Positions 3,048-35,900 of a DNA stretch of 64,000 nucleotides are shown here, in pieces. The DNA is taken from contig NC_134032.1 in assembly GCF_964204645.1 (NCBI RefSeq), forward strand, positions 7,118,275 to 7,182,274, in the 5' to 3' direction. The position numbers and the translations under genes are program-made. This DNA is from Tubulanus polymorphus. Lineage: Eukaryota > Animalia > Nemertea. Position 1 is the first letter of the stretch, and each line of letters starts with the position of its first letter. Under the pieces are notes generated by a model. The model saw nothing but the letters and a program-made list of their open reading frames with translations. It was not told the origin of the DNA and did no database searches.

Positions 3048-3462
3048 AGTAATAGGGGTAATAGGCTTTCATACCAAAGGTCGAACGGTCGAGCCCATTA
3101 AAAAATGAAAAACATAAAAATAATAACAATTTCTACTTGAATTACTCGCGAAACTCATAAAAATGAAAAATAAATTCTCACACGCTCGAATTTATTTTTC
3201 ATTTTCTACTCGCTAAGAAAAAGTGTGAGTAAAGTGTGAGTGAAATAATTCATATTTTAACAGATTTCGAGTAAAAATATAAGTAAAATAAATGGATAAC
3301 TAAACGAATATAAAAGTGTGAGTAAAGTGTGAGTGAAATAGTTTATATTTTAAACATATTTCAATATTTATATTTGTATGAGTTAGATTTTTAAACATTA
3401 AAAGTGTGAGTAAAGTGTGAGTGAAATAATTCATATTTAGAACCGTGAACATTTATATTTGA

Positions 3463-4110
3463 ATGAGTTTTAATAAAAATTTTGTTATAAAAATGAAGAA
3501 AGAAGAAGAACCCAACTTTAAAAACGAAATCAATGAAACCAATAAATCATTTTCACAGTTTAACATTAAAAATTATATTTCAGCAACAAATTTAGTGTCC
3601 GCAAGGCATTATAAAATTGAAAATATTACTGTAATTAATCAAATATTATCAAATGAAACATATTTAATTACTAAACTAGTAGATACCTTTGATAATGGCA
3701 TTAAAAATCCTAAAATGTTCAATACAGTTTTTAATTTTAAAGGAACTTTAGATGAAAACATAATTAATATTCTTAAAACTCCTTTAAATGAAAGAAATGA
3801 TGATATAATACTTTCAAAAGATTACAATGATTTGATTAACTTAAGAATTGAAAAAAGACAATTATATTATTTCAATTTTGATAATAAACAAATTATCTAT
3901 AATGAAAATTCATCAAATATTGGTATTCAATGTGAATTAGATAATGAAAAATCATTTAAAGATATTGCAGTTCAATGTAATTTAGATAATGAATTTAGAA
4001 AATTCAATCCTAATGAAAAAGTGCATTGTTATTGCGGAGGTAAATATTTAAAATCACATAAATCAAAGCATTATGAAACAATTAAACATAAAAACTGGCG
4101 TAAAGAGTAA
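3463..4110 (+). CDS. 215-aa protein with C-terminal CxCG...H...H zinc-finger-like motif
   Basis: HCYCGGKYLKSHKSKHYETIKH motif, a type common in large DNA viruses and Polinton-like viruses. The true start may be the second Met (3493). Confidence 0.6.
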   Translation: MSFNKNFVIKMKKEEEPNFKNEINETNKSFSQFNIKNYISATNLVSARHYKIENITVINQILSNETYLITKLVDTFDNGIKNPKMFNTVFNFKGTLDENIINILKTPLNERNDDIILSKDYNDLINLRIEKRQLYYFNFDNKQIIYNENSSNIGIQCELDNEKSFKDIAVQCNLDNEFRKFNPNEKVHCYCGGKYLKSHKSKHYETIKHKNWRKE

Positions 4111-4167
4111 CAATTCTACATTATAATTATTGAATTGAGTTAAATGATTTAAATATCTAATAGAATG

Positions 4168-5015
4168 TTGAAATGATAAATTGTTTGACAGTTGAAATGA
4201 TAATTGTTTGACAGTTGAAATGATAAATTGTTTGACAGTTGAAATGATAAATTGTTTAACAGTTGAAATGATAAATTGTTTGACAGTTGAAATGATAAAT
4301 TGTTTGACAGTTGAAATGATAAATTGTTTGACAGTTGAAATGATAAATTGTTCGACTGTTGAAATGATAAGACAGTTGAAATGATAAATTGTTTAACAGT
4401 TGAAATGTTAAATTGTTTGACAGTTGAAATGATAAATTGTTTGACAGTTGAAATGATAATTGTTTGACGGTTGAAATAATAAATTGTTTGACGGTTGAAA
4501 TGATAAATTGTTTGACGGTTGAAATGATAAATTGTTTGACAGTTGAAATGATAAATTGTTTGACAGTTGAAATGATAAATTGTTTAACAGTTGAAATGAT
4601 AAATTGTTTAACAGTTGAAATGATAAATTGTTTGACAGTTGAAATGATAAATTGTTTGACAGTTGAAATGATAAATTGTTTGACAGTTGAAATGATAAAT
4701 TGTTTGACAGTTGAAATGATAAATTGTTTGACAGTTGAAATGATAAATTGTTTAACAGTTGAAATGATAAATTGTTTGACGGTTGAAATGATAAATTGTT
4801 TGACAGTTGAAATGATAAATTGTTTGACATTTGAAATGATAATTGTTTGACAGTTGAAATGATAAATTGTTTAACAGTTGAAATGATAAATTGTTTGACA
4901 GTTGAAATGATAAATTGTTTGACAGTTGAAATGATAAATTGTTTGACAGTTGAAATGATAAATTGTTTAACAGTTGAAATGATAATTGTTTGACAGTTGA
5001 AATGATAAATTGTTT
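4168..5015 (+). repeat. 24-bp tandem array, ~35 copies (GACAGTTGAAATGATAAATTGTTT)
   Basis: Directly visible. It produces the spurious TVEMINCL and SNNLSFQL ORFs. Confidence 0.97.
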
Positions 5016-5140
5016 GGCTGTAAATTTAATTGTTATTTGATTTAATCATTTAAAAGTTTAATATTTTTAAAATGATTATAAAATATTTAATTAAAAACTA
5101 GCAAATATTTCATTAACTGTTTAATTTTTCTCTTAAATAA

Positions 5141-5338
5141 ATGGATGGTTTCATCCCAACTGGGAAAAGTGATTTGAAACATTATCTTGTAGCAGGAGGA
5201 TTGATATTGACTGCGCTTTATTTATACTATGAGAATATTAGTAAGGATTTGATGAATGAAAATATAAAATTGAGCAAGAAATTGAAAAAATTAAATGGAA
5301 ATAAAAATAATCATAAAAAAGTTATTGAATCAGATTAG
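5141..5338 (+). CDS. 65-aa putative single-TM protein
   Basis: Hydrophobic YLVAGGLILTALYLYY followed by a Lys-rich tail. Start context TTTTTCTCTTAAATAAATG matches the Polinton gene-start motif. Confidence 0.55.
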   Translation: MDGFIPTGKSDLKHYLVAGGLILTALYLYYENISKDLMNENIKLSKKLKKLNGNKNNHKKVIESD

Positions 5339-5358
5339 TGAATTAATTAAATAAATAA

Positions 5359-5661
5359 ATGAGTGAAAATATATTAAACTTATTACATCTAATATATAAA
5401 AATCAACAGAATATTGAATCAATTATTATGCTTACAGGTTTATTTTCTTTTTCAATTTATAGTATAAAACAGTTGTTAGAATTCTATGATTGCTGTAAAA
5501 TTAGATACACTGAATTAATAGAAAATATGAATTATATTTCAGATAGATTGAATAATATTAAATGCTGTGAAAAATGCAATAAAAGATATAAAAATAAAAA
5601 GAGTTTGAGAAATCACTTGTATATTCATGAACTTGATGAAAAATTATATGAATCAAAATAA
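5359..5661 (+). CDS. 100-aa protein with hydrophobic segment and C2H2 zinc finger
   Basis: CEKCNKRYKNKKSLRNHLYIH zinc finger; TAAATAAATG start. Confidence 0.6.
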   Translation: MSENILNLLHLIYKNQQNIESIIMLTGLFSFSIYSIKQLLEFYDCCKIRYTELIENMNYISDRLNNIKCCEKCNKRYKNKKSLRNHLYIHELDEKLYESK

Positions 5662-7126
5662 GAAATCGACTGTTAAATTAGCTGAAAATATAAAATATAT
5701 TAGTTGAAATGTATGAAAATAAAAGTTAATAAAAAAAGGGGGTTGAGGTATCAATGTATTAGATACCCTATTAGATACCCTAATACCATGTATTAAATAC
5801 ATATCAAATACGTATTGATGGTATTAAATACGTATTAATGGTATTGAATACATATTATGCTTTATTTCTGAAAATGAAGTAAAAGAAGTAATTTATGTTT
5901 TAATTCATTCAAGTATGATATTGTAAATTCTTTACAATTGTATAGGATAATACAAGAGTGATATTAGTTAGTTGGCTTATTCAATAAGAGAAACAATGAA
6001 ATAATACAAGAGTGATACTAACAGTTAAAGTTATTGAATTTCTTGTTAAATCTATTTGAATAGAAATCCAAAAAGATTTAAATAAAAAAACAATAAGTTA
6101 AATAAGTTAGTATTAGATAAAGTAACTTATTGTTTTTTTATTTAAATCTTTTTGATTTCTATTCAAATAGATTTAACAAGAATATAAATTTATAAAATAA
6201 AATCCTAATTCAAAATATTATAGAATTCACTGTATATTGATGGATGAGTGGATGAGTTGGATGAATTGGAAGAGTGGATGAATGGATGAGTGTAATAATA
6301 TATATATTTTACTTTTTAACACATAAATTGGAAGAATAGTATGAGTATAAATATAATATTTATATTCTTTATTAAATTTAACACAATATATATATTGTGT
6401 TAAATAATATTTAAATATAATATAAAATTGATAAAATAACTTCAAATCAAACTCTTACTGTTTTAAAAATAAAAAACATATGTAAATTATATATTATTAC
6501 ACTCATCCATTCATCCACTCTTCCAATTCATCCAATTCATCCAACTCATCCATTCATCCATCAATATACAGTGAATTCTATAATATTTTGAATTAGGATT
6601 TTATTTTATAAATTTATATTCTTGTTAAATCTATTTGAATAGAAATCAAAAAGATTTAAATAAAAAAACAATAAGTTACTTTATCTAATACTAACTTATT
6701 TAACTTATTGTTTTTTTATTTAAATCTTTTTGGATTTCTATTCAAATAGATTTAACAAGAAATTCAATAACTTTAACTGTTAGTATCACTCTTGTATTAT
6801 TTCATTGTTTCTCTTATTGAATAAGCCAACTAACTTATATCACTCTTGTATTATCCTATACAATTGTAAAGAATTTACAATATCATACTTGAATGAATTA
6901 AAACATAAATTACTTATTTTACTTCATTTTCAGAAATAAAGCATAATATGTATTCAATACCATTAATACGTATTTAATACCATCAATACGTATTTGATAT
7001 GTATTTAATACATGGTATTAGGGTATCTAATACATTGATACCTCAACCCCCTTTTTTATTAACTTTTATTTTCATACATTTCAACTAATATATTTTATAT
7101 TTTCAGCTAATTTAACAGTCGATTTC

Positions 7127-7438
7127 TTATTTTGATTCATATAATTTTTCATCAAGTTCATCAAGTTCATGAATATACAAGTGATTTCTCAAACTCTTTT
7201 TATTTTTATATCTTTTATTGCATTTTTCACAGCATTTAATATTATTCAATCTATCTGAAATATAATTCATATTTTCTATTAATTCAGTGTATCTAATTTT
7301 ACAGCAATCATAGAATTCTAACAACTGTTTTATACTATAAATTGAAAAAGAAAATAAACCTGTAAGCATAATAATTGATTTAATATTCTGTTGATTTTTA
7401 TATATTAGATGTAATAAGTTTAATATATTTTCACTCAT
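7127..7438 (-). CDS. Mirror copy of the C2H2 protein (103 aa)
   Basis: Inverted copy of 5359-5661 with an extra ELD (9-bp duplication) and one E-to-K change. Confidence 0.6.
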   Translation of the reverse strand: MSENILNLLHLIYKNQQNIKSIIMLTGLFSFSIYSIKQLLEFYDCCKIRYTELIENMNYISDRLNNIKCCEKCNKRYKNKKSLRNHLYIHELDELDEKLYESK

Positions 7439-7458
7439 TTATTTATTTAATTAATTCA

Positions 7459-7656
7459 CTAATCTGATTCAATAACTTTTTTATGATTATTTTTATTTCC
7501 ATTTAATTTTTTCAATTTCTTGCTCAATTTTATATTTTCATTCATCAAATCCTTACTAATATTCTCATAGTATAAATAAAGCGCAGCCAATATCAATCCT
7601 CCTGCTACAAGATAATGTTTCAAATCACTTTTCCCAGTTGGGATGAAACCATCCAT
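7459..7656 (-). CDS. Mirror copy of the 65-aa TM protein
   Basis: Inverted copy of 5141-5338 with one T-to-A change. Confidence 0.55.
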   Translation of the reverse strand: MDGFIPTGKSDLKHYLVAGGLILAALYLYYENISKDLMNENIKLSKKLKKLNGNKNNHKKVIESD

Positions 7657-7781
7657 TTATTTAAGAGAAAAATTAAACAGTTAATAAAATATTTGCTAGT
7701 TTTTAATTAAATATTTTATAATCATTTTAAAAATATTAAACTTTTAAATGATTAAATCAAATAACAATTAAATTTACAGCC

Positions 7782-8510
7782 AAACAATTTATCATTTCAA
7801 CTGTCAAACAATTATCATTTCAACTGTTAAACAATTTATCATTTCAACTGTCAAACAATTTATCATTTCAACTGTCAAACAATTTATCATTTCAACTGTT
7901 AAACAATTTATCATTTCAACTGTCAAACAATTATCATTTCAACTGTCAAACAATTTATCATTTCAACTGTCAAACAATTTATCATTTCAACTGTTAAACA
8001 ATTTATCATTTCAACTGTCAAACAATTTATCATTTCAACTGTCAAACAATTTATCATTTCAACTGTCAAACAATTTATCATTTCAACTGTCAAACAATTT
8101 ATCATTTCAACTGTCAAACAATTTATCATTTCAACTGTCAAACAATTTATCATTTCAACTGTCAAACAATTTATCATTTCAACTGTCAAACAATTTATCA
8201 TTTCAACTGTCAAACAATTTATCATTTCAACCGTCAAACAATTTATCATTTCAACTGTCAAACAATTTATCATTTCAACTGTCAAACAATTATCATTTCA
8301 ACTGTCAAACAATTTATCATTTCAACTGTCAAACAATTTAACATTTCAACTGTTAAACAATTTATCATTTCAACTGTCTTATCATTTCAACAGTCGAACA
8401 ATTTATCATTTCAACTGTCAAACAATTTATCATTTCAACTGTCAAACAATTTATCATTTCAACTGTCAAACAATTATCATTTCAACTGTCAAACAATTTA
8501 TCATTTCAAC
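7782..8510 (-). repeat. 24-bp tandem array, mirror copy (~30 units)
   Basis: Reverse complement of the 4168-5015 array with fewer units. Confidence 0.97.
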
Positions 8511-8566
8511 ATTCTATTAGATATTTAAATCATTTAACTCAATTCAATAATTATAATGTAGAATTG

Positions 8567-9214
8567 TTACTCTTTACGCCAGTTTTTATGTTTAATTGTT
8601 TCATAATGCTTTGATTTATGTGATTTTAAATATTTACCTCCGCAATAACAATGCACTTTTTCATTAGGATTGAATTTTCTAAATTCATCATCTAAATTAC
8701 ATTGAACTGCAATATCTTTAAATGATTTTTCATTATCTAATTCACATTGAATACCAATATTTGATGAATTTTCATTATAGATAATTTGTTTATTATCAAA
8801 ATTGAAATAATATAATTGTCTTTTTTCAATTCTTAAGTTAATCAAATCATTGTAATCTTTTGAAAGTATTATATCATCATTTCTTTCATTTAAAGGAGTT
8901 TTAAGAATATTAATTATGTTTTCATCTAAAGTTCCTTTAAAATTAAAAACTGTATTGAACATTTTAGGATTTTTAATGCCATTATCAAAGGTATCTACTA
9001 GTTAAGTAATTAAATATGTTTCATTTGATAATATTTGATTAATTACAGTAATATTTTCAATTTTATAATGCCTTGCGGACACTAAATTTGTTGCTGAAAT
9101 ATAATTTTTAATGTTAAACTGTGAAAATGATTTATTGGTTTCATTGATTTCGATTTTAAAGTTGGGTTCTTCTTCTTTCTTCATTTTTATAACAAAATTT
9201 TTATTAAAACTCAT
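8567..9214 (-). pseudogene. Mirror copy of the 215-aa protein with a nonsense codon
   Basis: Left-arm ACT AAA CTA reads ACT TAA CTA here (9002-9004), which splits the ORF into 70-aa and 131-aa pieces. Confidence 0.75.
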
Positions 9215-9628
9215 TCAAATATAAATGTTCACGGTTCTAAATATGAATTATTTCACTCACACTTTACTCACACTTTTAATGTTTAAAAATCTAACTCATA
9301 CAAATATAAATATTGAAATATGTTTAAAATATAAACTATTTCACTCACACTTTACTCACACTTTTATATTCGTTTAGTTATCCATTTATTTTACTTATAT
9401 TTTTACTCGAAATCTGTTAAAATATGAATGATTTCATTCACACTTTACTCACACTTTTTCTAGCGAGTAGAAAATGAAAAATAAATTCGAGCGTGTGAGA
9501 ATTTATTTTTCATTTTTATGAGTTTCGCGAGTAATTCAAGTAGAAATTGTTATTATTTTTATGTTTTTCATTTTTTAATGGGCTCGACCGTTCGACCTTT
9601 GGTATGAAAGCCTATTACCCCTATTACT

Positions 9629-10691
9629 GACATCTCCGTATGAAGTTGTCCGTCGGGTGATACTCCCAAATAGTCAGGTAACCCATCCACTATGGTAACA
9701 TTGTGGGTTGTGGAATTACACGGAATCGGAAAACTGTGAATACTATACAGATTAAAATATGCGCTGTTTTGGCTTAACGGTATTTTAATCGAAATGTAAA
9801 GGTATTTATCAGATTTTGAAAACAAAACCTGGCGTCGTTGGTAATAATAAGCTGGAATGGTGTGTAATACACGATACAGGGGGTGTCTCCGTTCCAGCAT
9901 AGCAGACACAGTACTCACAGCCCTGGCAATATGTTCTGGGCCAACTAAACGTATTGGTATGTAACCCTCTAGTAATGTTTGCACATCCGCCACCCAGTCA
10001 TGTGATATTCGTTCAAGGTCTAACATCGCCGAAAAAGAAACCGTGATTTGTTGTAATAAAAGCGCCACAAATCGTATATTTTTGTTAAACCCTGAAGCGA
10101 ATCTAGCTACTCTCCCAGTCATATTTCTAATCCTTATATCATTTAGGTGCATGGCGGACACAGCATTTTCAATACGCTTATCGACAGCCCCTGCAAAAGA
10201 TCCCAACCGTTTCGTTAAGGAAAATATTTGTTTGGTGTTTAATTTCGTTAATTTTTCGACCCGATTTACATGATCCTGTACTTGCAGCACATCGTCCACA
10301 GATGCGGTGCCAAATAAAGACTTAAAGACACCTGCAAAAAATCCAGCAGTACGCTTAACTCTACCATTTTTCGGCGCGTCTCTACTCGGAATTAACTTCT
10401 GCACCGTTTTCATATTTGTGTGAACACTCTCGATTAACGCATTATGTTTGGTGACCAAAAATTTGAGTGTGTCCGTAAAACTACTACAAACGACATCATT
10501 ATCCTCGCACGTCGGGATATCCAAGTTGACGGGCTGAACCTTTATCCAGGGTATGACCATGGTGTGGAGCCAATCAGAATGACCATTGTCAATGGTGGCC
10601 ACCTTCTCGAACACCACACCATACCCTGGTCTCACAACCGAGTCGTCATCGCATTTACCGTTATTGAGCAATGGAGAAAGGACGAGGCAGC
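9629..10691 (-). pseudogene. env: env glycoprotein, N-terminal half (baculovirus F / errantivirus env-like class I fusion protein)
   Basis: Furin-like site RVKR followed by fusion-peptide-like TAGFFAGVFKSLFGTAS and a heptad region. It lies directly downstream of the integrase. Confidence 0.8.
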
Positions 10692-10772
10692 CTACAAAAC
10701 GTGGAAAGAAGAGGCACTTAGTGCAGGAATCGGTCTCATAATGACATGAGGATTATTTAGCCCGAACAATAT

Positions 10773-12293
10773 TTAATGTCTTTTTTTCTTCTTTTCATTA
10801 AACGCATCAATAACTGATTTGTCAAAAATATTCTCCTCCGGCTCCCACGTTCTGTACCTGGACCCATAGCCTTTCCAATGCACCAAATACTCGGTCTTGC
10901 CATTTCTCAGTCGCCTAGATCTGACTAGCCGATCTACGGTATATATATCAGAATCATCCTGAATAGCTGATTGGAAGTTAGATCTAATTGGATCGGTAAT
11001 ACTTTCTTTAGATTTGGGTTCTGGTAGGTTACTGTCAACTTGGACATGATCCGGTGGCAAATCATCCTCGTCAAAGTCACCGTCAACAGGCAAGTCCTTC
11101 GGTACATCTACCGGTCTGTCGTCAGGGTGTATATAAATTTTCATGCGATTTACGTGGATCACCTTGTCTAATAATTTATTTTTCTTAACGTTATGTACTG
11201 TAAACCCCACGTCAGACTTTCTTTCAATTAAAACATATGGACCGTAATATTTGTGCACAAACTTTTTCGCCTGTCCCTTTTTGATAGCTGGACAGTATAT
11301 CCAAACATATTGACCAACCTCAAACTTGTGTTGTTTTGCATTTCTATCATAATATGATTTTTGTTTCGATTGTGCTTCCCTAATGTTGTTTCTAGCAATA
11401 TTATGGGCTAGTTGTGTATTTTTGACTACCCGTGTTAAACAGTCTCGATCTGAACCCAATAATGTTGTTGTCTCCAACAACGAACAGTCGATTGGTAGCT
11501 TTGGCTCGCGACCGTATAGTGGATAAAATGGTGTGTAAAGAGTTGTCTGAGAACAGGGACTACATCTATAGGCAAAGACACAGCCAGGAACAAATTCGTC
11601 CCAGTCATTTCCCGCTGAATTTACGCACATTGACAAACTATTTACCAATGTTTTGTTAAACCGTTCCGTAAGTCCGTCACACCAGGGAGCGTATGGACTA
11701 GTTCGAATTTTTGATGCGTTGAATAACTTGCAGATTTCTAGTATTAATTTCGAATTAAAGTTAGACCCTTGGTCTGTGAGTAATGCTTTAAAGCAACCAT
11801 GTCGGACAACTATTTCATCGAATAATATTCGAGCTATCTTTGCAGATTCGATAGTTTCCAGACAGAAACATTCTACATACTTTGTTAAATACTCGGTGAT
11901 TACTAAAATGTATCTATTCCCTCGTTTCGTGACATTAAGCGGTCCTAGAATATCCGCGCCTATTAAGTCCCATACGTCATGTACTTCAATAGGTATCATA
12001 GGCGCTTTCTTTTTATTTGGTGCAGGCTTTCTTGAGGCACAAGCCTCGCAACTGAGACACCAATGTTTTACATCATAATACATGCCTTTCCAGAAATACC
12101 TCATTCTTGTTTTTAAGTATGTTCTCGTTACCCCAAAATGACCGGCAGCAAGGTCATCGTGCATTGCGTAAAGTATTTCCGAGCGCATAGTTTTAGGGAC
12201 TACCAATTGGTTAATCATCTCCCCGTTATTAAGATAAATGTGATATAAGATTCCTGATTCATTTAGAAAGTATTGGTCACTTTCCAACAACAC
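10773..12293 (-). CDS. pol: Gypsy-type integrase with C-terminal chromodomain (pol fragment)
   Basis: HHCC zinc motif (HDDLAAGHFG...CEAC), DDE core (GADILGP, LTDQGSNF, GLTERFN), GPY motif and chromodomain YTVDRLV...YLVHWKGYGSRYRTWEPEENI. Frameshifted upstream continuation at 12263-12724. Confidence 0.9.
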   Translation of the reverse strand: MLLESDQYFLNESGILYHIYLNNGEMINQLVVPKTMRSEILYAMHDDLAAGHFGVTRTYLKTRMRYFWKGMYYDVKHWCLSCEACASRKPAPNKKKAPMIPIEVHDVWDLIGADILGPLNVTKRGNRYILVITEYLTKYVECFCLETIESAKIARILFDEIVVRHGCFKALLTDQGSNFNSKLILEICKLFNASKIRTSPYAPWCDGLTERFNKTLVNSLSMCVNSAGNDWDEFVPGCVFAYRCSPCSQTTLYTPFYPLYGREPKLPIDCSLLETTTLLGSDRDCLTRVVKNTQLAHNIARNNIREAQSKQKSYYDRNAKQHKFEVGQYVWIYCPAIKKGQAKKFVHKYYGPYVLIERKSDVGFTVHNVKKNKLLDKVIHVNRMKIYIHPDDRPVDVPKDLPVDGDFDEDDLPPDHVQVDSNLPEPKSKESITDPIRSNFQSAIQDDSDIYTVDRLVRSRRLRNGKTEYLVHWKGYGSRYRTWEPEENIFDKSVIDAFNEKKKKRH

Positions 12294-12885
12294 TTTCCTA
12301 GCAAGCTTATCGTCTGTGGGTAGCTCCTGCTTAAGTAATAATTAATTATATTGCTCAGCTCATTATCGTTGCGTTGTTTTTCTTTTAATTTTCGTTTTGT
12401 CCCGTCGCCTCCACACGGCGGAGGTTCCACATTCAAATTACTACAATATGTGTCCTCATTTATTATAAATTCATCAGTAAAATATGTAAAATCGGGAGGG
12501 TGATCAAGTCCTACCGAAGTTACGTTTAATACGTCCATTTGAGGAACAAATTCATTTGCAAATGGTGACAAGGCTGTTTGGTCTCGTCGTTCATATCCAG
12601 AGACCATAATTTCTCTATTCCCCCCGCCCTCTGTTGTATATACGTCATTTTCTTCGCTCGAGTTGCTTAAAATTATTTGGTCTGTTAATACGAGACTTTT
12701 GTCACATGGACATCTCTGGTCCACTTTTGCTGCAGGTACATTACATTCTACTTTATTTTCATTTAATATCTCCCCATCCCCTTCCCCTCCCCAAATGCGT
12801 ACGTAATAAATGAATTAACCCTATAGCCAATCTACTTAAGACCACTTATGCACTTTTGGGTTTAAGCCATGACTGCAACAGGCTC

Positions 12886-17606: not shown

Positions 17607-18034
17607 TGTGAAGATCAACCGATACGTAAGATTCATGTTCCGTGGCAAAAAATCATTAGGACATTTATTTTCAGACGTCACAAACACGGATGCACGATTA
17701 ACTACAAACAAATAGAAAATTACCATAAATAAATTTGTATAATTATTGACATAAGAGAATATCTTTATATTGGCAATTTACCGTAATATTTGGCTGTCTA
17801 AACCTTCAATTTAAATCTTCACCCTTTACTCAAATACAGCAACACAACCTTACAGGTCTAAATCCATATAACAAGTGACCAAAAATCTCAAAATCTGATA
17901 TATCTATTGAACTATACAAATTCTCAGGCTATAGAATTACCATGACCAGAAACCATGAAATAACAACCATAGAAATATATCAAATACAGTATACAGAATA
18001 CAATAAAGCAGAATTTCAGGAATTATTCCTTACA
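17607..18034 (-). repeat. BEL 3' LTR
   Basis: Direct repeat of 23993-24420; only 3 substitutions found by eye. Confidence 0.96.
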
Positions 18035-18143
18035 TACCCGCCCCCTAATTGAGAAACTCAATTAACATAATAACGATAATGTCCAAAAACAAAAACCTAT
18101 TCTTGACTGTTAAGCACGATGAATCTAAAGTAACAAAGAGAAT

Positions 18144-20120
18144 CTAAAGTTTAATTTCATTTTCGACGAGAACGCACAGCTTATCAATAGGACGCTGAAA
18201 AATAGTACCCTTTGCCGTTCTTACTGAAGCCGAACGAACAAAACCTTTTCGATCACGATGGACTTCTGAAATACGCGATAGAGTCCACGAGTTACGGATG
18301 GATCCATCGACGATGAAGACAATATCTCCAACACATACGTTTCGTTTCGCAGTATTCCATTTACTGCGAATCTGCAGGAGATGCAAATACTCAGATGTCC
18401 ACCGCTTCCAGAAAACATTCGCAATATGCTGAACTTGCCTCCAACGACGTCGAGTATATAAATCGGATTTGTCAAATAGTCCGGGAGGAAAAGTAGATCC
18501 TTTGTGTAACAGTAATAGGTGATTCGGGGTTAAAGGTTGTAGATCATTTGGATCATTTGATAACGTAGATATAGGTCGACTATTCAAAATCGACTCGACC
18601 TCACAGAACAATGTGGATAAATTATCATCATTTAGATTTGAACCTTGTTCTTTCATCAATGAAAACAAGATTTTACGGACGGAACGAATGAGGCGTTCCC
18701 ATACACCTCCAAAGTGACTCGCACCTGGAGGATTAAAAATCCACTTGACATTGTTCTGCAATAAGAAATCATGGATTTGGTCCTTATTCCAACAATCAAT
18801 ATTCCTCTGTAGCTCTCGATTGGTTCCAACAAAATTGGTTCCATTATCAGATCGAATTAGACGTACATTTCCACGTCGTGCGATAAATCTGCGATAAGCG
18901 TTAATACAACCAGATGTGTCCAGAGTAGGCGAGACCTCCAAATGAACAGCCCTAGTTACCAGGCAGGTGAAGATAACACCATAACGCTTCTCAATACAAC
19001 GACCCCGTTTTACCTCAAACGGGCCAAAGTAATCTGTTCCCGTATTAGTAAATGGCGGATTGTCAGGCAACAATCGCTCTTGAGGAAGATCTGCCATCTT
19101 CTGATTACAAACTTGACCACGGTACTTTTTACATAAAACACATTTCCTCGTTATATCCTTAACCAGTTGATTAGCCCTTAAAATCCAGTAACGCTCGCGC
19201 AATCGGGCTAACATTGAGCTTTTACCAAGATGCCCGACCGATGCATGAACACTCAACAATATCAATTTCGACACATGAGAACATCTAGGCAATACAACCG
19301 GATGTCGTTGTTCATATTCAAGAAAATATGCTTTTCTCAGCCGACCACCAACACGGATTATATCGTCTTCTAAAACAGGATCTAGTTGATACAATTGACT
19401 ACCTCTGGGAATCAACTTTCTATCATTTGAACGGAGAATCACTAATTCTTTCCTGAAATAATCTTCCTGTACGCATTTAATAATTGCCAGCTCGGCTCTT
19501 TGAAGATCATCAGTACTCAGCTTATTGGTATTCAATCGTTCAGCATTAGCGTTTTCACCAGAAAGACGTTTACTTACTCTCAACAGCAAACAATCTTTCA
19601 ACCTTAAAAACCATGCAGCGGCACGTTTGAGTCTATGCCAGCTTGAGTAGTAGTTAAATAGATGTTTTATAGGATCATCATCAGAAACCGAAAGTACAGC
19701 ATTAGAAGTCTTCTTCAACTCAACATCATCATCACTCAGGGACCGTAAAACACCGTGTTGACATGGCCACTCAGATATTGGCTTCCAAAGGAACTCCGGG
19801 CCGTGTAACCATACTACTGAGTTTTGTTCTATACAATCCAGTGACAAACCCCTAGACGCATAATCTGCTGGGTTCAGATGACCATCTACAAACTTCCACT
19901 GCTGAATACTTGAACCATCTCTAATTAAATTCACTCTATTCGCTACGAAAGTGTGATAACGAGCAGTCTCATTAGCAATATATTTCAGTACTGCAGTGCT
20001 GTCGCTCCAAAAATATACATTTGAAACACTGTACTCCAATTCTTCCAACATCATCTTATTCATCTTAATCAGTAATGCAGCTGCAGCTAATTCCATCCTA
20101 GGAACTGTCATTTTCTTCAA
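18144..20120 (-). CDS. pol: BEL/Pao RNase H-integrase portion of polyprotein
   Basis: VPRMELAAA, FWSDSTAVL, NPADYASRG, TGTDYFGP, RSDNGTNF and GGVWERLIR motifs. Frameshifted from the RT ORF near 20170. Confidence 0.92.
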   Translation of the reverse strand: MKKMTVPRMELAAAALLIKMNKMMLEELEYSVSNVYFWSDSTAVLKYIANETARYHTFVANRVNLIRDGSSIQQWKFVDGHLNPADYASRGLSLDCIEQNSVVWLHGPEFLWKPISEWPCQHGVLRSLSDDDVELKKTSNAVLSVSDDDPIKHLFNYYSSWHRLKRAAAWFLRLKDCLLLRVSKRLSGENANAERLNTNKLSTDDLQRAELAIIKCVQEDYFRKELVILRSNDRKLIPRGSQLYQLDPVLEDDIIRVGGRLRKAYFLEYEQRHPVVLPRCSHVSKLILLSVHASVGHLGKSSMLARLRERYWILRANQLVKDITRKCVLCKKYRGQVCNQKMADLPQERLLPDNPPFTNTGTDYFGPFEVKRGRCIEKRYGVIFTCLVTRAVHLEVSPTLDTSGCINAYRRFIARRGNVRLIRSDNGTNFVGTNRELQRNIDCWNKDQIHDFLLQNNVKWIFNPPGASHFGGVWERLIRSVRKILFSLMKEQGSNLNDDNLSTLFCEVESILNSRPISTLSNDPNDLQPLTPNHLLLLHKGSTFPPGLFDKSDLYTRRRWRQVQHIANVFWKRWTSEYLHLLQIRSKWNTAKRNVCVGDIVFIVDGSIRNSWTLSRISEVHRDRKGFVRSASVRTAKGTIFQRPIDKLCVLVENEIKL

Positions 20121-20125
20121 AGGAG

Positions 20126-22696
20126 CTACTCTGCTTTTAGCAAATATAAAACAACAATGTACTTGACCATTTCATCTTCAAGGCGCAAATATGATACAGT
20201 GCCGTACCCAACATCACTTGCGTCCGCAAAATGATGCAGCTGACAAGATTTCGAAGAACCATGAAACCATTGAGGTTTGAAGCATCGTGATATAGCCAAC
20301 TCTTCAAGGCCCGGTAAACCTTCCTGCCATTTCTCCCAAACTTTCAGATATTTTTCAGGAATTTCTTCATCCCATGAAAGCTTCTCTCTACATAAGTCCT
20401 GTAGCAGAATTTTCACCGGCAGTTCATATGGGGCAGCAATACCCAAAGGATCATAGACTGTGCTGACCGTTGACAAAATCCCTCTGCGTGTATTTGGTTG
20501 ATGCTTAGAAGTTATCCTGAAGCCATAAGTGTCGTTCTCTATATTCCAGTGGACGCCCAATGCTCTTTCTGTTGGCGAACCAAAATCCAGACTCTTCAAC
20601 TCCTTGCAAGATTTAGCAAGCTCTTCTTCTGGCAAACTTTCAATTACAGAACGATCATTACTTACAAACTTGGTGAGTCGAAAGCCCCCTTCTTTACACA
20701 GAGATATCAGTTTCATCACAAATTCTGGATTTTGACCATCTTGTACACGAGACTTCAAACAGTCATCAACATAGAAGTTTTTCAAGACTGTATTGGTAAC
20801 TTCTACTTCATACTTGCTAACGTTGTCAGTGGCTGTCCGGCGTAAAGCCCAGTTAGAACAACTCGGGGATGAGATTGCCCCAAATAAGTGAAATAACATA
20901 CGGAATGGTATGGCTTTCTTGTTCAAATCACCATCCGGCCACCATAAGAATCTCAAGCAGTCTTTATCATCCGGTGCAACCCTTACTCTATAAAACATAG
21001 ATTCTATATCTGCCATTATTGCGGTTCTTTCTTGTCTGAAACGTATCAACACACCAACCAAAGTGTTAGTCAAATCTGGCCCTTGTAACAATTGAGAATT
21101 CAAAGACACTCCACCATAAAGTGCAGGACAATCGAAAACGACACGGACTTTTTCAGGTTTTTTGGGGTGATATACCCCGTGATGAGGTATATACCATATA
21201 CGACCATTTTCCAAACGCAAATCTTCATTAGGAACCTGTTCCGCGTAGCCTTTAGCCAATATATTGTCCATAAAGACATTATAGTCATGTCGAAACTTGT
21301 CATTTTTCAACAGCTTATTTTCCAGATTTGACAGTCGTTTCTCAGCATGCCGAATATTATTGGGAAACCTCAAATTCTTGTCACGCCATGGCATTGGTAA
21401 TTGGTACTGTCCATTCTCTATTTTTACATTGGACTCCATCATCGTCATAAATTTATGATCTTCAACTGACCATTGTTTTTTATCTTCAGCAATTCGCTCA
21501 GGAAAGTCAAAATCTATAGCTTCCTGAACCAATTGATCAAGAGAACTCACAGCACAGCTGATTTTGTCAACAGTGTCGGTAACTATATCATCGTCTTCAT
21601 CACCAGATCTAATAACATTCCAGGCGACCCATCCTAGTCTAGTTCTGGAAGCATGTGGTGATCCAGCTGGGCCTGTCCGTAACTCGAACGGTGTGTATGC
21701 ATCCGCAATATTATTGCCAATCAACAGACCAATTTCTGCATCTATCTTAGGCAATTTAACATCACTCATGTGCGACCATTTACGGATGTCATCTTCTGTT
21801 GGCACATGCAGTGGTGAAACTGGCATCTGCTCTGTAGTATAAACAGCAGGCATGAAAACTACGTCTTCAGTTTCCAAACCTCTGACTTCTAAACAATGAA
21901 CAATCTGAGTATCAAGCATTGTAGACCTCGCCATAGTGTCGAGATTCAATCTCACTTTCTTGCCAATACCGCCGATCTGCTTCAACAACGACGAAGTACA
22001 AAAAGAAATACTACTTCCAGGATCTAGGAAGGCGAAAGTTATCACTTCTGGAATTCTTCCCTTCACTTTCACTCTAACTGGAAGTATAGCCATAGTACAG
22101 AATCCATCTGTCTTCTTTTCACCATCATTTATGGCGCCACAGGGAATTCCATCTTTTACATCTGATATCGTGTTCTGATTATGATCTCTTCGTGTCATAA
22201 TTGCTGGGTTTTCAGGAAGTGACCTAGAATCATCATGCAGTACACTTGGATGCAACCGTTTACATATATCACAGTTCATCTTCAATCTACAATTTCTCTT
22301 CTGATGTCCAGATCGGAGACAACCCCAACAGAGGCCTTTTCTTTTAAGAAAAGATATTTTTTCTTCAAAGACCACATTAGACAGGTCTTTACAATCATTT
22401 AATACATGATCGCCAGCGCAGTATATACATGGTTTCTTCAATGCAAGATTAAATGAGTTTTGTTGATTCGTATGAGAAATGCTCCCCGTCTGTGCAGCAA
22501 CAGTATTTCGGCTACCCTGTGATATTCGCAGAGACTTTTTGTCTTTCTTCTGATCTAACGCAGCAGCCATCATATCTTTACCAAAAATCGGGTCGTTCAC
22601 CTTTTTTGACTCCTTCCGTACAAAACTCACTAAGGTATTCAGATTTATAGTATTACCAGCAGAGCGCGTTGTCTGTACTGTACTATAGTTCTCCAT
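20126..22696 (-). CDS. pol: BEL/Pao gag zinc knuckles, protease and reverse transcriptase
   Basis: CIYC/CWGC/CDIC knuckles, AFLDPGS protease, ADIESMF, LFGAISSP and FYVDD RT motifs. Confidence 0.92.
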   Translation of the reverse strand: MENYSTVQTTRSAGNTINLNTLVSFVRKESKKVNDPIFGKDMMAAALDQKKDKKSLRISQGSRNTVAAQTGSISHTNQQNSFNLALKKPCIYCAGDHVLNDCKDLSNVVFEEKISFLKRKGLCWGCLRSGHQKRNCRLKMNCDICKRLHPSVLHDDSRSLPENPAIMTRRDHNQNTISDVKDGIPCGAINDGEKKTDGFCTMAILPVRVKVKGRIPEVITFAFLDPGSSISFCTSSLLKQIGGIGKKVRLNLDTMARSTMLDTQIVHCLEVRGLETEDVVFMPAVYTTEQMPVSPLHVPTEDDIRKWSHMSDVKLPKIDAEIGLLIGNNIADAYTPFELRTGPAGSPHASRTRLGWVAWNVIRSGDEDDDIVTDTVDKISCAVSSLDQLVQEAIDFDFPERIAEDKKQWSVEDHKFMTMMESNVKIENGQYQLPMPWRDKNLRFPNNIRHAEKRLSNLENKLLKNDKFRHDYNVFMDNILAKGYAEQVPNEDLRLENGRIWYIPHHGVYHPKKPEKVRVVFDCPALYGGVSLNSQLLQGPDLTNTLVGVLIRFRQERTAIMADIESMFYRVRVAPDDKDCLRFLWWPDGDLNKKAIPFRMLFHLFGAISSPSCSNWALRRTATDNVSKYEVEVTNTVLKNFYVDDCLKSRVQDGQNPEFVMKLISLCKEGGFRLTKFVSNDRSVIESLPEEELAKSCKELKSLDFGSPTERALGVHWNIENDTYGFRITSKHQPNTRRGILSTVSTVYDPLGIAAPYELPVKILLQDLCREKLSWDEEIPEKYLKVWEKWQEGLPGLEELAISRCFKPQWFHGSSKSCQLHHFADASDVGYGTVSYLRLEDEMVKYIVVLYLLKAE

Positions 22697-23976
22697 CTAT
22701 CTTGAAGCGACCATGGTAATTTACCCACCAACTTCCTCAGATTGTCAGGGTACTCAAGAAGTTTCAATGCATCTATATCTTTCACAGCATTCTCTACTTC
22801 TAACAAGAAAATCGAGAATTCGTCCAAGCCTTTACTGTTGTCTGACTTAATCATAGGCCAGTTTATAGCTTTCTTTAACAAAGCATTTGCAATGATCGCC
22901 GAGTCACCGTATCGTTCTTCAAACTCTGTAAGAACAGCTTGATATCCTCGTGTTGAACCAATATAGCTAAGACCTGTTACAATTCTATTTGCCTCACCAA
23001 TTGTGAATTGTTCGAGAAAGTTTAGCCGTTCATCGTCGTCGTCCGTATTCTCAGCAATTCTAGAATTGAACTGACGGATGAAACGCCGGTATTCAAGAGG
23101 ATTTCCGTCAAATTTTTTTATTTCAACAAACGGCTTTTTGATATGCTTCACAATCGAATCTAGACCTCTTGGTTCCGCATTAACAACGCTTCCGACATCA
23201 GATGGCATGAACGTAGTAGCACGTGGATTCAAAGGTCTGTAAGAACCATCATTTTCAGCTATTTCATTTTTCAGAAATGTAGGAAATGGTTCGGGAAGGA
23301 ACGATTTATCATCAATCATTGACTTATTCGATTCCCTATCTAAAAGTGTTTCAATCACGTTACTCTTCGCTTCACTAACTTCCAGCTGCGTATTCAAATC
23401 TAAAAACTCTTCTTGTTGTTTCAGCCGCAATTTCTCAAGCTCAAGAGTCTGTTTTTTCTTCATACTATTCAGCAAGACATTAAGCTCTGCTTTTCTCTGT
23501 TCTTCTTTCAAACGAGCAGATATTATGGAGCTACCCTTACTCAAATCAGAGCGTACTGAACTAGCTTTTGATCTAACAGACTTCCTGGATTCAGCAGACC
23601 GTTTCGATCTTGCGAGTACCGACAAAGTATTTTCAGCCGCCATTTTGACTTGGTTGAAGTATGTATTCATCTCGTTACTTTCGACCGACAAATTCTCTTT
23701 TTCTTTAGAACTGAGTAGAAGACAGTACTCATCTGAAACTTGCAAGAAATTCTCGTACGTCTTGATCCAGTCTTTGTATGAATTCTGGACAACATCATAG
23801 TCACTGTGCTCAATAACTGACAGAAGAGTACTAGACAGGTTGTTCAGCTTCTTCAGGAGACTTTTTCTATCTTTCAGTTTATTCTCCTTCTGGTATTCGA
23901 CACCTTTTTCGGTCAGCGACCTATTTCTTGTTTCTTTTGGCCTAACATCTTGTTGGCCAGTTGCTGCTGTAGCCAT
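22645..23976 (-). CDS. gag: BEL/Pao gag N-terminal portion
   Basis: Coiled coil followed by KFDGNPLEYRRF (DUF1759-like). Frameshift into the next ORF near 22680. Confidence 0.85.
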   Translation of the reverse strand: MATAATGQQDVRPKETRNRSLTEKGVEYQKENKLKDRKSLLKKLNNLSSTLLSVIEHSDYDVVQNSYKDWIKTYENFLQVSDEYCLLLSSKEKENLSVESNEMNTYFNQVKMAAENTLSVLARSKRSAESRKSVRSKASSVRSDLSKGSSIISARLKEEQRKAELNVLLNSMKKKQTLELEKLRLKQQEEFLDLNTQLEVSEAKSNVIETLLDRESNKSMIDDKSFLPEPFPTFLKNEIAENDGSYRPLNPRATTFMPSDVGSVVNAEPRGLDSIVKHIKKPFVEIKKFDGNPLEYRRFIRQFNSRIAENTDDDDERLNFLEQFTIGEANRIVTGLSYIGSTRGYQAVLTEFEERYGDSAIIANALLKKAINWPMIKSDNSKGLDEFSIFLLEVENAVKDIDALKLLEYPDNLRKLVGKLPWSLQDRWRTIVQYRQRALLVIL

Positions 23977-23992
23977 TATTACGTTAATAAAA

Positions 23993-24420
23993 TGTGAAGA
24001 TCAACCGATACGTAAGATTCATGTTCCGTGGCAAAAAATCATTAGGACATTTATTTTCAGACGTCACAAACACGGATGCACGATTAACTACAAACAAATA
24101 GAAAATTACCATAAATAAATTTGTATAATTATTGACATAAGAGAATATCTTTATATTAGCAATTTACCGTAATATTTGGCTGTCTAAACCTTCAATTTAA
24201 ATCTTCACCCTTTACTCAAATACAGCAACACAACCTTACAGGTCTAAATCCATATAACAAGTGACCAAAAATCTCAATATCTGATATATCTATTGAACTA
24301 TACAAATTATCAGGCTATAGAATTACCATGACCAGAAACCATGAAATAACAACCATAGAAATATATCAAATACAGTATACAGAATACAATAAAGCAGAAT
24401 TTCAGGAATTATTCCTTACA
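23993..24420 (-). repeat. BEL 5' LTR
   Basis: 428-bp direct repeat of 17607-18034. Confidence 0.96.
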
Positions 24421-27121: not shown

Positions 27122-27979
27122 TACAGTTAGTATTACGAAATGGGTACAGCGTCTACTCTTTCTCTTAAAGGCCGAGGAGTATGGATGCTAGTTAACCGGG
27201 TGGCAAATACTTGAGATCGGCCGTCCCACTAACTACAGTATCTTGTTTATAATGTTTAGAGTGAGCGAGGTTGGCACACAACAGAAAAGCAGGTCACACA
27301 CAGTTAAATTTGACAAATTCATAAAAGTTTTCATATCAAGTTCTAAACTAATTTTAAGTAATCTAGTCATAGTGGGAATGAAAATCTGATGCTAGCGATC
27401 TTTTTTTGAAGAGATAGGGCCAAGATTAAAGATTTTAGAGACATTTCAAATTTTTTGAAAATCATTAATTTTTATCCGATTTCGATGAAATTTGGACACA
27501 ACATTGATGGTAGATAGCTAAACAAGTGTACGAAATTTCAGACTGATCCATTGACCATGAAAAAAGTTCTGATGTTGCCAAATTTTGGTACTATGAATGA
27601 GGCTATGTTTTGTTTATGTATACTGATGACAATAGGTATCAAATTACTGTTCATGTGCTCTGTGAGCTACACTAATTCACTGGATAACTCCTCCCTCTAT
27701 GTCATTCAAAGATTCAAATTTTGAAGGAAATACCAACTAAAAAGCTTAATTTCTCGTAGAGGAGGGCCTAAAACACATTTTTGACTGCAGAAATGAATAT
27801 ATTACACATTAATACATATGTCTGACAAAAAGGAGGGTCCAAATCGGATAACTGACAGAGAAAATAGGAGAATTCCAGTTTCAACCGTTGGAGCTCTCCA
27901 CTGCACTATTGCTTCATGGGTACTGCCATCTTTGACATTGATTGGGCTTTTATACTGCTCCTCGGCCTTTAATATAACA

Positions 27980-28288
27980 ACTCGAAAAGTCATTTTGTGA
28001 AGTCGACTTACAAACTCGAAAAGTCGACTTTTTAAAGTCGAAAGGTCGACTTATTAACTCGAAAAGTCGACTTTTTAAAGTCGAAAAGTCGACTTTTCGA
28101 ATTTATATTTTTTAATATTTTAATAACTCGAAAAGTCGACTTTTCAAAGTCGAAAAGTCGACTTATTAACTCGATAAGTCGACTTTTTAAACTCGAAAAG
28201 TCGACTTAATAGCGCGAAAAGTCGACTTTCTAAGCCGAAAAGTCGACTGAAAATAAAATGTTGTCATTGGCCGCATTGCTCTTCCGTA
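27980..28288 (-). repeat. Subterminal array of palindromic AAAAGTCGACTTTT units ending in a TACGG terminus (IS3EU-like end)
   Basis: About 10 GTCGAC-cored units with ~21-bp spacing. CCGTA ends at 28288, upstream of the integrase gene. Confidence 0.55.
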
Positions 28289-29137: not shown

Positions 29138-29250
29138 GGCCCGATTTTATAGACTGGTATTAATTAACTTTAACCCGGGGGCTAACTCAATTGAAATTGA
29201 ATTGAGTTAGCCCCCGAGTGAAAGTTAATACCTGTCTATGAAACTGGCCC
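29138..29250. mobile_element. Small palindromic MITE
   Basis: CGGGGGCTAACTCAATT...AATTGAGTTAGCCCCCG stem with imperfect outer inverted repeats. Confidence 0.5.
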
Positions 29251-29905
29251 CAGGAGTTGAAGAATTGCATAAAATTCTTTTCACAAGGTGAATCAGAGAA
29301 AAAGTGACTCCAGCCGTAAATCAAGTTTGACCCATATATACCTATAAGGACATTGTTAAACATTAGAAAACAATTAGGTTTTTCTTCATTTAACAAAAAT
29401 GAAACTGCGCATCTGTGCTGGTCATTTTAACACCTTTATCAGGTGAACTAATCCAGTTATGGCAACCCGGCTTCCTTTCAAACGTCAAGTCGAAATTTGT
29501 GCTAATGGCAAATTGCATCGAATTTTACAGGTTGTTACACAACAGCTCGTTACAGAGCTGAGGGAAAAGCTTGCCATCACTGAGAGAAGGCTTAAAGATA
29601 TTGAGATAAGGTTTGCGTACTTGATAACAATGAAAATCATCTAAAACATGTATAAACAGTAAAACCCGTGATCACACGGGGACGATTTTGGCCGTGCTAA
29701 AATTTGACTCGGGCCTGCTCCGACGTTTTTGGTCGGATAAAATTTGTCCCGGGTCTAAAGCTGGGCGCACACCTTTGCGATCATCGCATGCGATGATACG
29801 ATGACACGATGAAAATCGCATCATCCCCGCATACCTTTGCGATTTTTATGAGGGCCTCGAGTTGGATTCAATCACGTGACTGATAAAAGCCATACGACTG
29901 AAAAA

Positions 29906-32900: not shown

Positions 32901-35900
32901 TAGCACTAAGGGGGCGTTTCGTTTCAAAAGGTCGTTTAGTCGATGTTGGTGTTGATTCTGGCACTTCATTGAGTGAAACTGAGTAATTAGGAAAGTAGGC
33001 TTTCAGGCCAGAGGGCGAGAGGGCGAGACACCACTCATCACCACAAGTAATTTTTTTTTCCTACTCATCACCACAAGTAATTTTTTTTCCTAATAAATGG
33101 GAGATAGAAAAGCATTCTTAGCAACAATAAATAACAGAATAAAACCAGCAAAAAAACAATTTGAAATAAAAAAGTTAGTTTATGTTACAAAAGAAATTGA
33201 ACATAAAATATTGAAATTAGAAAAGATAAAAACTAAATATGGAGAGAAAGTATCAGCTAATTTAAGCTACTGTAATGTTAGTACATCACGAGAATTTAAA
33301 GTGTTTTTACCTGATAAATGGGTTTCATTGAGTACGGAGGAATTGAAAGATTTAGTAGGATTTAAAATAATATATCATGGGAAAAATGAAGACGGTCATC
33401 ATGATTTAGAAATTGTTGATTAAATTTTTAAAAAAATAAATTAATAAAAATAATGAATATCTAGAATCCGAAATGACTTATCTGGACAATTTAATTGCTC
33501 CGCATAGATGGTGCCATAAACAGCACCAACACAGTGATAGACAAAAGTAGTGAGATATTCAATTAATATTCAATTAATTAAAAAAATTATTTTTTTTGCT
33601 TTTTTTCTAAAATATTAATCCATTTTTTTTATTATTAATTTTGGAATTTCAGAAGTATTTTCATTTTTGATAGCAGTTGGTTCAGAATTACTAATATCAT
33701 GAATTTTATTTGATTTCTTATACCAATTACACCCAATCAAAATGAATACAATTACAAATCCAACTGTAAAATATAAATATTTATTAAATATTCTACTATC
33801 AGAAGGAGTAGAAATAACAATATTTTCACCATTTTTATTAACATTTTTATTACTTATTTTTTCTTTTACAGCTTTTTTATATTCTTGTGATTTAATTCCT
33901 AATTGTCGAGACCATTCAATTTGTTTCTGAGTTCTCGGTTTTTTCTTCACTTCTTTCACCTCGCTCATTTATTATAGAAATATTTTTACTTTCAATATTT
34001 GAAAATGTTATAACTCCAGTTGATAATAATGTCATAAATCCACCTAATTGAAATGATAAATATCCAATCCATTTATTTAATTCGGTCATAACTAAATAAT
34101 CATTTTTTAAATCGGAATATAATCTATTTTCATCTTCAATTGGTAGTATATAATTACATAATTTACTATAACCTTTTACTACATTTTCTGATATCGCGTC
34201 ATTAATTCTAGCTGTTCTCGCGGCTTCATAAATCTTAAATAATCTAATAATTTCATCTGATTTCATTGCGTCTAATTCATTATAAGTTAAATTTTTACTA
34301 ACAAAATTTTTACATTTTCCAGATGCTATTAATATTTCTAATTGATGTTTACAATAAAGATAATATTCATAATTATTATTTGTTGTAACATTATTTAAAG
34401 CACCATCATCTGGAATTAATTTTGTTTCTGTTATTCCTAAATCATCTAAAGTTTTTTCAATTGGAACATCACCATTTTTAGATTTTATTTTCTTTTCACC
34501 TCCCATTTATATAACAAAAAAATTAATTGTGTGATGTTGCAACTAGAATTTAACTAGAATGTAACTAGAATTCAACTAGATTAACAAGCTAGTTGAAATA
34601 TTGTTGTTTTTATTTATTTCTTGTTAAATCTAGTTGATTTTTGTTTCAACTACTAACAACTAGAATTCAACTAGAATGTAACTAGAATTAAAATAGATTA
34701 ACAAGCTAGTTAAAATATTGTTAAATCTATTTGATTTTTGTTACAACTACCAATAACTAGAATTCAACTAGATTAACAAACTAATTGAATTTAAATAAAT
34801 TCATATTTAAATGGGTGTTGTAATCTAAATAGTAATTTTGATCTTTTAATATTTTTCAACTCATCCATATATTCATTATGTAAATCATGTGGAATAATAT
34901 CATTTTCCTCAAGTGCATTTTTCATCGATTTTCTATCTTTATTGTAGAATAAAACTAGAAATCTAATGTTTTCTCTAAAGTCTTTAACAATTGAATTATA
35001 TTTTTGATTTAAAACCCAAGTTGTTATCCCAAAATGTCTCCCAGAGAAAGCTAAATAGCATAACTCACTTTCTCTAACTTTTGAATCATGTAGATTAGCA
35101 CAATCATCTATAATGAATAATGTATTTGATCCTTTATAAATATCAATTGCTATTTTTATACAATTATCTAAATTTTCTTTTACTGTTTTAGGATCTAATA
35201 TAATAAATTTATTATTCCTAGTGATATTTTTATCATAAGTTTGATTAAATTCATATGTTGGACAAAATAATACTATATTATCAAAATAGTTTTCATAAAC
35301 AGTTTCTAATAAATGTAATATAAAATAAGTTTTTCCACAATTTGTTACACCAGAAATTAACATATTATGAGGCTCAAATATGAATAATTCCTTATTCATT
35401 TATATATTTTTAATTTTACTTGATAATATCCATTCATTAAATTTATCTGGCCATCCAACCCATTTTACTAAAGAATATTTTTTTCTTTTAATAGTTTTTG
35501 TTTTTAATACTTTTTCAATTTTATATTCTTGTTCTAGATTTTCAGTAGTTAAACTTAATTCTTCTTCGTAAAAGTAGCCATCAACTTCTTCACCATCTAA
35601 ATCTTCTAATTTATAGACATATGGTTTTGTTGTTATTACCTTTTTTATTTTATATATTTCTCTAGTAAAATTTCGATCGTATCCTTTATCAAATATCTTT
35701 TTATACTTAGAAATTCTAACATTTTGACCAACTTTAAATTTAGGTTCACCAAAATCATCTATAAGAAATGCTCCATATAAATTATTCCAAACAATTTCAG
35801 CATTTTCAGGTTTTCTAGCATCAATAGGTTTCATTCCAATAGAAGAATGATAAGAATTATTATATCCTTCTATCAATTTTGGTAAAACATCAATCCATTT

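Follow-up and report, generated by a model that had tools for sequence, protein, structure and literature searches.

A many-copy palindromic element with Polinton-type ends in Tubulanus polymorphus

Introduction

Two mobile elements of very different build lie in one stretch of the genome of the nemertean Tubulanus polymorphus and resemble each other at their tips: is one of them the satellite of the other? The stretch in question (contig NC_134032.1, positions 7,118,275 to 7,182,274; 64,000 nucleotides, hereafter the window, in whose numbering all coordinates are given) contains a palindromic element of 6,581 bp and about 22% GC (3048..9628) and a Polinton/Maverick of 14,558 bp (32982..47539). 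A preliminary description of the window proposed that the palindrome and the Polinton are a satellite-helper pair, and that a large DNA virus might add a third tier to the system. Here we report that the palindrome is a real, recurrent, non-autonomous Polinton-type element, unusual in its build and tied to one Polinton sub-clade; the named satellite-helper pair and the three tiers are unproven.

Related tips on two real insertions

The 46-nt tip of the palindrome (3048..3093, + strand) aligns without gaps to that of the Polinton (32982..33027, + strand) at 34 of 46 positions (74%), exactly as first described, and the match lies beyond chance in all shuffle tests. Identity amounts to 6-8 per 10 bases along the tip and drops to 1-4 directly past base 50. 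Without the first 6 bases, 28 of 40 positions are identical, a level reached by none of 200,000 base shuffles and none of 50,000 dinucleotide shuffles; when the prefix length was left to free choice, again no shuffle in 50,000 reached the tip match. The top score of the palindrome tip elsewhere in the window is 25/46 (127,910 positions), and only the four element ends exceed it. The two tips of the Polinton are identical to each other.

Both elements are flanked by 6-bp target duplications, which also bears out the preliminary description: GACATC at 3042..3047 and 9629..9634 for the palindrome, and AAACTG at 32976-32981 and 47540-47545 for the Polinton. Moreover, each insertion interrupts a reading frame that resumes on the far side. 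The palindrome divides the env-like open reading frame (ORF) of a long terminal repeat (LTR) retroelement into 10752-9635 and 3047-1754 (env being a label that we assume for this frame, which has no Pfam match), and the Polinton sits in an ORF that faces a DDE transposase frame head to head. Thus, the 6-bp duplications and the split reading frames identify both elements as real insertions.

Build and gene content of the palindrome

The palindrome consists of a left arm of 3,257 bp (3048..6304, +), a unique and very AT-rich spacer of 183 bp (6305..6487) and a right arm of 3,141 bp (6488..9628, -), the arms making up 97% of its length. Over about 3,120 aligned bases they show 19 substitutions, along with 7 indels, and are hence 0.6% apart, or 99.4% alike. 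Each arm carries the same series of features. ORF215 (3463..4110, +) encodes an orphan protein with a C-terminal zinc-finger-like tail of the form C-x-C-G-G-K-Y...H...H; in its mirror copy (9214-8567), a stop interrupts the frame. It is followed by a 24-bp tandem array (4170..5020, +) that counts about 36 units on the left side and 31 on the right one, and ORFs arising from this array were treated as by-products. ORF65 (5141..5338, +; mirror copy 7656-7459) is a small protein with one hydrophobic stretch, and ORF100 (5359..5661, +; mirror copy 7438-7127) combines a hydrophobic stretch with a weak C2H2 finger that falls below the Pfam cut-off; both begin at TAAATG. Finally, a nested hairpin of about 140 bp lies inside each arm (6040..6181, +, in the left one).

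A Pfam scan found no integrase, polymerase, ATPase or capsid gene among the palindrome ORFs, and blastn and tblastx found no protein and no long DNA match shared between the palindrome and the Polinton. ORF215 had no match in a collection of 5.8 billion proteins and 11 weak matches among 1.84 billion, nearly all restricted to the zinc-finger-like tail, so that neither collection holds a full-length relative. Its single-sequence structure model was uninformative (pLDDT 34), with Atlas matches all below 0.9. None of ORF215, ORF65 and ORF100 found a match in the fetched sets of 80 and 21 loci, the latter two ORFs having been compared with Pfam and these loci only.

A mobile family in raw reads

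The spread of the palindrome can be assessed in raw DNA reads of another individual under the same species label (read set X5, 12% of the run). Mean depth is 1.96 over the left flank, about 417 over ORF215 (some 210 times the flank) and 3,472-3,649 over the tip (about 1,800 times the flank). Upstream of 3048, 2,071 reads run out of the element, and the mutual agreement of their flanks is just 0.38, as many insertion sites would produce; insertion at many sites is thereby seen for the tip, not for whole palindromes. In addition, tip-bearing reads depart from the arm early, 1,340 of them at 3104-3105 and 365 at 3205, and continue into other sequence, which implies that several sub-families share the tip. 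Of 11,017 reads, 8,377 are less than 95% like the palindrome copy in the window, and 412 match the tip only from 3067 onward. The TAGGCTTTCA box, described earlier as conserved, is present at both the palindrome and the Polinton tip, but it varies within the palindrome family, with another base at position 3063 in 2,054 of 3,649 reads. The palindrome is therefore the window's representative of a large mobile family.

The reads also bear on how the two arms are kept alike. Forty of 263 variant rows were listed and 26 of these entered a comparison between the arms; among the 12 entered rows in which at least 75% of the reads differ, 10 have the same minority base in both arms. Only one of the 14 listed rows left out, 3217, reaches 75%; it adjoins an inter-arm indel, and if it is taken as discordant the count becomes 10 of 13. 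These joint minority bases suggest, and would fit, a fold-back intermediate in which one arm is rebuilt from its partner.

Three further observations were made on the reads. Strand-switching reads connect 3144 with 3205 (180 reads), 3191 with 3248 (59) and 3197 with 3242 (39), all within 3144-3250, and could be short derivatives of the family formed by fold-back, or else effects of the local hairpin. At 3357, 342 reads begin with one and the same loose end, and opposite-strand joins between 3048 and 3357 occur in 44 reads; a sub-family founded by a nested insertion is one possible source. A contig (X1) considered as a bridge between flank and element showed no differences from the flank to 3071, but was set aside since it includes only 24 element bases, too few for this purpose; X1 may moreover be the very sample that the window derives from.

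The neighbouring Polinton is defective

The Polinton in the window has terminal inverted repeats of about 119 bp and is a defective copy. An A32-like packaging ATPase (34791..35399, -; Pox_A32, E 6e-13), an rve integrase with a chromodomain (35400..36527, -; E 1.6e-10) and a double-jelly-roll major capsid protein (36558..37805, -) are all encoded in open frames. The structure model of the capsid protein (pLDDT 90) matches capsid chains of PBCV-1 and an iridovirus (E ~1e-16), and in sequence it has a 39% identical match with a bivalve label. Together with the 6-bp duplication and the end repeats, these genes are those expected of a Polinton/Maverick. The intact protein-primed B-family DNA polymerase also expected of one is lacking: its gene (44440..47423, -) is in pieces, broken near 45250 and again near its 5' end. 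Near 45250, the N-terminal part stops, another frame resumes within a probable intein and the centre is absent. Further frame breaks in the element lie near 47350, 39260 and 42200. The polymerase pieces gave no Pfam polymerase match, and the B-family motifs are those that we take this gene to contain. No Pfam match to an adenovirus-like cysteine protease was found among the 16 Polinton ORFs scanned, no further search having been made. With the polymerase gene broken and its centre missing, the window copy cannot be a replication helper.

TAAATG gene starts mark one Polinton sub-clade

Gene starts of the form TAAATG, which the preliminary description attributed to both elements, occur at 14 of the 17 Polinton starts examined (33097-47423), but at only two of the three palindrome ORFs. 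Among related loci, they follow capsid identity closely. Where the capsid is at least 70% identical to that of the window Polinton, 24 of 25 genes (5 loci) start in this way, and at 45-70% identity 15 of 18 do (9 loci), as against 9 of 200 genes in 64 other loci, two AT-rich loci among these having none; close and middle relatives pooled thus reach 39/43. The TAAATG start is the mark of one AT-rich Polinton sub-clade, which includes the window Polinton and the loci L001, L004 and L005. Since these starts are sub-clade-specific, the link of the palindrome to the sub-clade is real. Likewise, the 33 bases leading to ORF215's second ATG resemble the upstream regions of Polinton and sister genes (19-27/33; AT-rich sequence, compared without a shuffle control), so that the earlier statement that similarity stops after the tip applies to the ends themselves but not to this stretch. 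As a side observation, the sister Polinton L005 encodes a deoxynucleoside kinase (10340-10981, -; Pfam dNK, E 1.7e-31).

How specific is the tip match?

The outside comparison covered 80 related metagenome loci (402 kb), of which L019 alone provided a usable end. This end belongs to a distant Polinton (capsid 36% identical) and scores 19/46 against both window tips, and no position in the 80 loci exceeds 27/46 against the palindrome tip. Thus, the tip match is not generic, and the possibility raised at the outset that shuffled or unrelated termini match equally well did not materialise in the shuffles or at this one distant end. Searches with terminus patterns found none in viral contigs and none in genome contigs; a looser pattern led to 16 viral loci, all of which stay at or below 26/46 with either tip and lack Polinton genes. 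Searching viral contigs for capsids did not yield a confirmed locus.

Subterminal DNA gives a further indication. An AT-rich segment of 31 bases in the palindrome (3099..3129, +) agrees in 27 of 31 columns with the start of contig L005, whose capsid is 76% identical to that of the window Polinton. This level is reached by 9 of 3,000 shuffles; in close relatives 2 of 514 windows attain it, in the window's Polinton 0 of 232, a likeness that weakly favours the sister family over the window Polinton.

In summary, the palindrome has Polinton-type ends and a 6-bp duplication, lacks an integrase and a polymerase of its own and has its tip at many sites, as a non-autonomous Polinton would. The proposed pair is supported in part, by this coreless build, by the many insertions and by the gene-start signal of the sub-clade. 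The window Polinton as its helper is not supported: the polymerase of the window Polinton is broken, the tips are 74% alike and a sister is closer in subterminal DNA.

Probable intein remnant and other features of the window

At motif C, the polymerase gene of the Polinton retains what is probably the C-terminal part of a LAGLIDADG intein (44905..45245, -). The frame preceding motif C is 47% identical over 270 residues (E 7e-68) to P0132, a polymerase of the B family that carries a full LAGLIDADG intein at the same site and whose polymerase motifs we likewise assign by assumption. The last residue of the remnant is Asn, with Thr following it, and identity to the corresponding part of P0132 is 50%; the P0132 intein passes Pfam Intein_splicing, whereas the C-terminal part in the window scores below cut-off on its own. 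In the 7 loci listed out of 8 related ones, and in L097 and L098, the polymerase match begins only past the intein, which is thus sporadic. Intein invasions have been named as the source of homing nucleases in Polinton polymerases (PMC11071308). No published title on inteins in animal Polintons was found, and an intein in a Polinton polymerase from what is likely an animal genome forms a lead of its own.

The LTR retroelement that received the palindrome (1754-3047 and 9635-12341, -) encodes a chromodomain integrase followed by the long env-like ORF, which includes a basic RVKR motif. A second LTR element at 17607-24292, presumably BEL/Pao-like judging by its ORFs, has direct repeats 6,386 bp apart that are 99% alike over the 300 bp shown. 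Beside the Polinton, a DDE_Tnp_4 (PIF/Harbinger-type) transposase frame occupies 47594-48523 (+), and the ORF that the Polinton entered is its neighbour in the same element. Two tandem arrays also lie in the window, one of 21-22-bp units around a GTCGAC palindrome (27965-28250) and one of about three 1,476-bp units that are 94-100% alike (52877-57197).

Which element moves the palindrome?

We consider it probable that the palindrome is a gene-poor many-copy element mobilised in trans by an intact sister-family Polinton of the AT-rich TAAATG sub-clade, and not by the window copy. The palindrome has AGT-type ends and a 6-bp duplication, it carries no replication, integration or capsid gene, and its tip is found at a great many sites whose flanks differ. 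A helper integrase would make these insertions, and a helper protein-primed polymerase would start at the tips. The displaced single strand might then fold into a 3.2-kb hairpin in which one arm templates or corrects the other, so that the arms within a copy would stay alike while copies drift apart. The small ORFs may be read through the transcription signals of the helper, and packaging in the helper capsid is a putative last step. If the palindrome is indeed mobilised by a sister family, the 34/46 match would go back to end signals that members of the sub-clade inherited from a common ancestor, and not to a one-to-one pair.

Several points weigh against this reading. Among the loci compared, no autonomous element with closer ends was seen, so that the existence of one would have to be assumed, and the outside control is a single end (that of L019), which means that 34/46 may be the closest partner this genome can offer. 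The match to L005 is short and of low complexity, and that contig was obtained from a different sample and is missing its tip. TAAATG precedes only two of three palindrome ORFs, with a background of 20 in 260 ATGs. The flank used as depth reference is itself an LTR element, in another individual, and the copy numbers are rough. Palindromy is seen for the window copy alone, and the identity of the arms might also be due to gene conversion once the element had inserted, or to a single recent founder.

A direct pair, in which intact copies of the window Polinton's own family mobilise the palindrome and the 34 shared bases suffice for the enzymes, is in our view unlikely but the strongest of the alternatives. 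The significant tip match and the lower scores of L019 and the 80 loci speak for it, as do the shared species, the open integrase, ATPase and capsid frames and the identical tips of the Polinton. Yet 12 of the 46 tip positions differ, the shared box varies within the palindrome family, the window copy cannot supply a polymerase and the subterminal DNA is closer to the sister.

Alternatively, the arm with its ORFs may be one end of an autonomous sister-family Polinton, doubled by a template switch and amplified as a plain defective genome rather than an independent satellite lineage. The gene starts and base composition of the palindrome are those of the sub-clade, the tip reads that exit at about 3105 and at 3205 perhaps lead into the autonomous element, and gene-containing terminal repeats of about 2 kb have been described in Polintons (10.1101/2025.02.07.637071). 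Such an origin is nevertheless quite improbable, given that none of the three ORFs was matched in the fetched loci and that ORF215 has no full-length relative.

Foldback elements have long inverted arms with internal tandem arrays, and for the tip match taken by itself blastn gives an E-value of only 0.08. That the likeness is chance or generic, and the palindrome a foldback element from a different transposon superfamily or an artefact of assembly, is nevertheless very remote. We reject chance and artefact, because no shuffle reaches the match, which is located exactly at the four ends, and because the different flanks, the target duplication, the split reading frame and the differences between the arms oppose a fold-back read artefact.

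Comparison with known systems

Animal Polintons are reported to be 12.7-24.6 kb in size, with terminal repeats of 1,447 bp at the longest (PMC8097293). Like them, both elements of the window have a 6-bp duplication, an AGT-type end motif and terminal inverted repeats, and the 14.6-kb element, with its integrase, ATPase, capsid and polymerase genes, falls within the size range, although the window ends read AGTAAT and not AGTAGT. The palindrome differs in having no core genes and in its 3.2-kb arms, which exceed 1,447 bp and leave little else in the element.

Non-autonomous Polintons are said to have been described by Kapitonov and Jurka in 2006 or in Repbase, in accounts that may cover long-armed forms. 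The palindrome would share with them Polinton ends, the absence of core genes and mobilisation in trans; unlike them, it has no identified partner with near-identical ends, and its interior consists of orphan ORFs and a tandem array instead of a recognisable deletion of such a partner. The snap-back defective genomes reported for linear DNA viruses are similar in that one end is mirrored, both origins are kept and a helper is needed, but the palindrome is integrated, inherited and diversified into sub-families.

Transpovirons, which are linear mimivirus plasmids, have 6-8 genes and encode a superfamily 1 helicase (PMC3671162). The palindrome resembles them as a small, linear element that has few genes, including one for a zinc-binding protein, and would depend on a virus system; it departs from them in its three ORFs per arm, its lack of a helicase and its place in host chromosomes, and by gene content it is not one. 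We found no published title on palindromic Polinton satellites; the literature compared further included PMC6431247, PMC3014272, PMC8502044, PMC12220804, 10.1101/2024.01.15.575659 and 10.1101/2022.07.12.499685.

A third tier, and what the palindrome means for Polintons

The only pointers to a large DNA virus as a third tier are the TAAATG starts and a VLTF3 gene; these hints are real, and dependence on such a virus is unproven. TAAAT is a poxvirus transcription start element that is conserved in vaccinia late promoters (PMC4542343), and VLTF3 genes have already been reported in polintoviruses (PMC11131425). In the window Polinton, a zinc-finger protein (43142..44443, +) has a C-terminal domain resembling VLTF3, a poxvirus late transcription factor; it scores 26.6 bits against a cut-off of 25 when the C-terminal 203 residues are used, and the whole protein gives no such match. 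A strict link between VLTF3 and TAAATG is not upheld by a scan of 30 ORFs, 29 of them from 96 listed: locus L043 has a weak VLTF3 match (E 6e-4, below cut-off) and TAAATG at none of 6 genes. Nor was any large-virus gene recognised among the window ORFs read. We found no published title on TAAATG in Polintons. It appears distinctly doubtful that late transcription of the poxvirus type controls the sub-clade, that a large DNA virus has to switch it on and that giant-hairpin satellites parasitise it in an animal germline. To our knowledge, both the mode by which Polintons copy themselves and the need of animal Polintons for a helper virus are open questions.

If such a system were true, self-renewing hairpin satellites with orphan genes of their own would outnumber the Polintons of this sub-clade by hundreds. 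The near-universal TAAATG in one sub-clade offers a direct test for poxvirus-like transcription dependence. In addition, an element that has many copies and little beyond two mirror arms shows which end signals are the minimum, and it would keep a record of fold-back copying, to be read by comparing its copies one by one.

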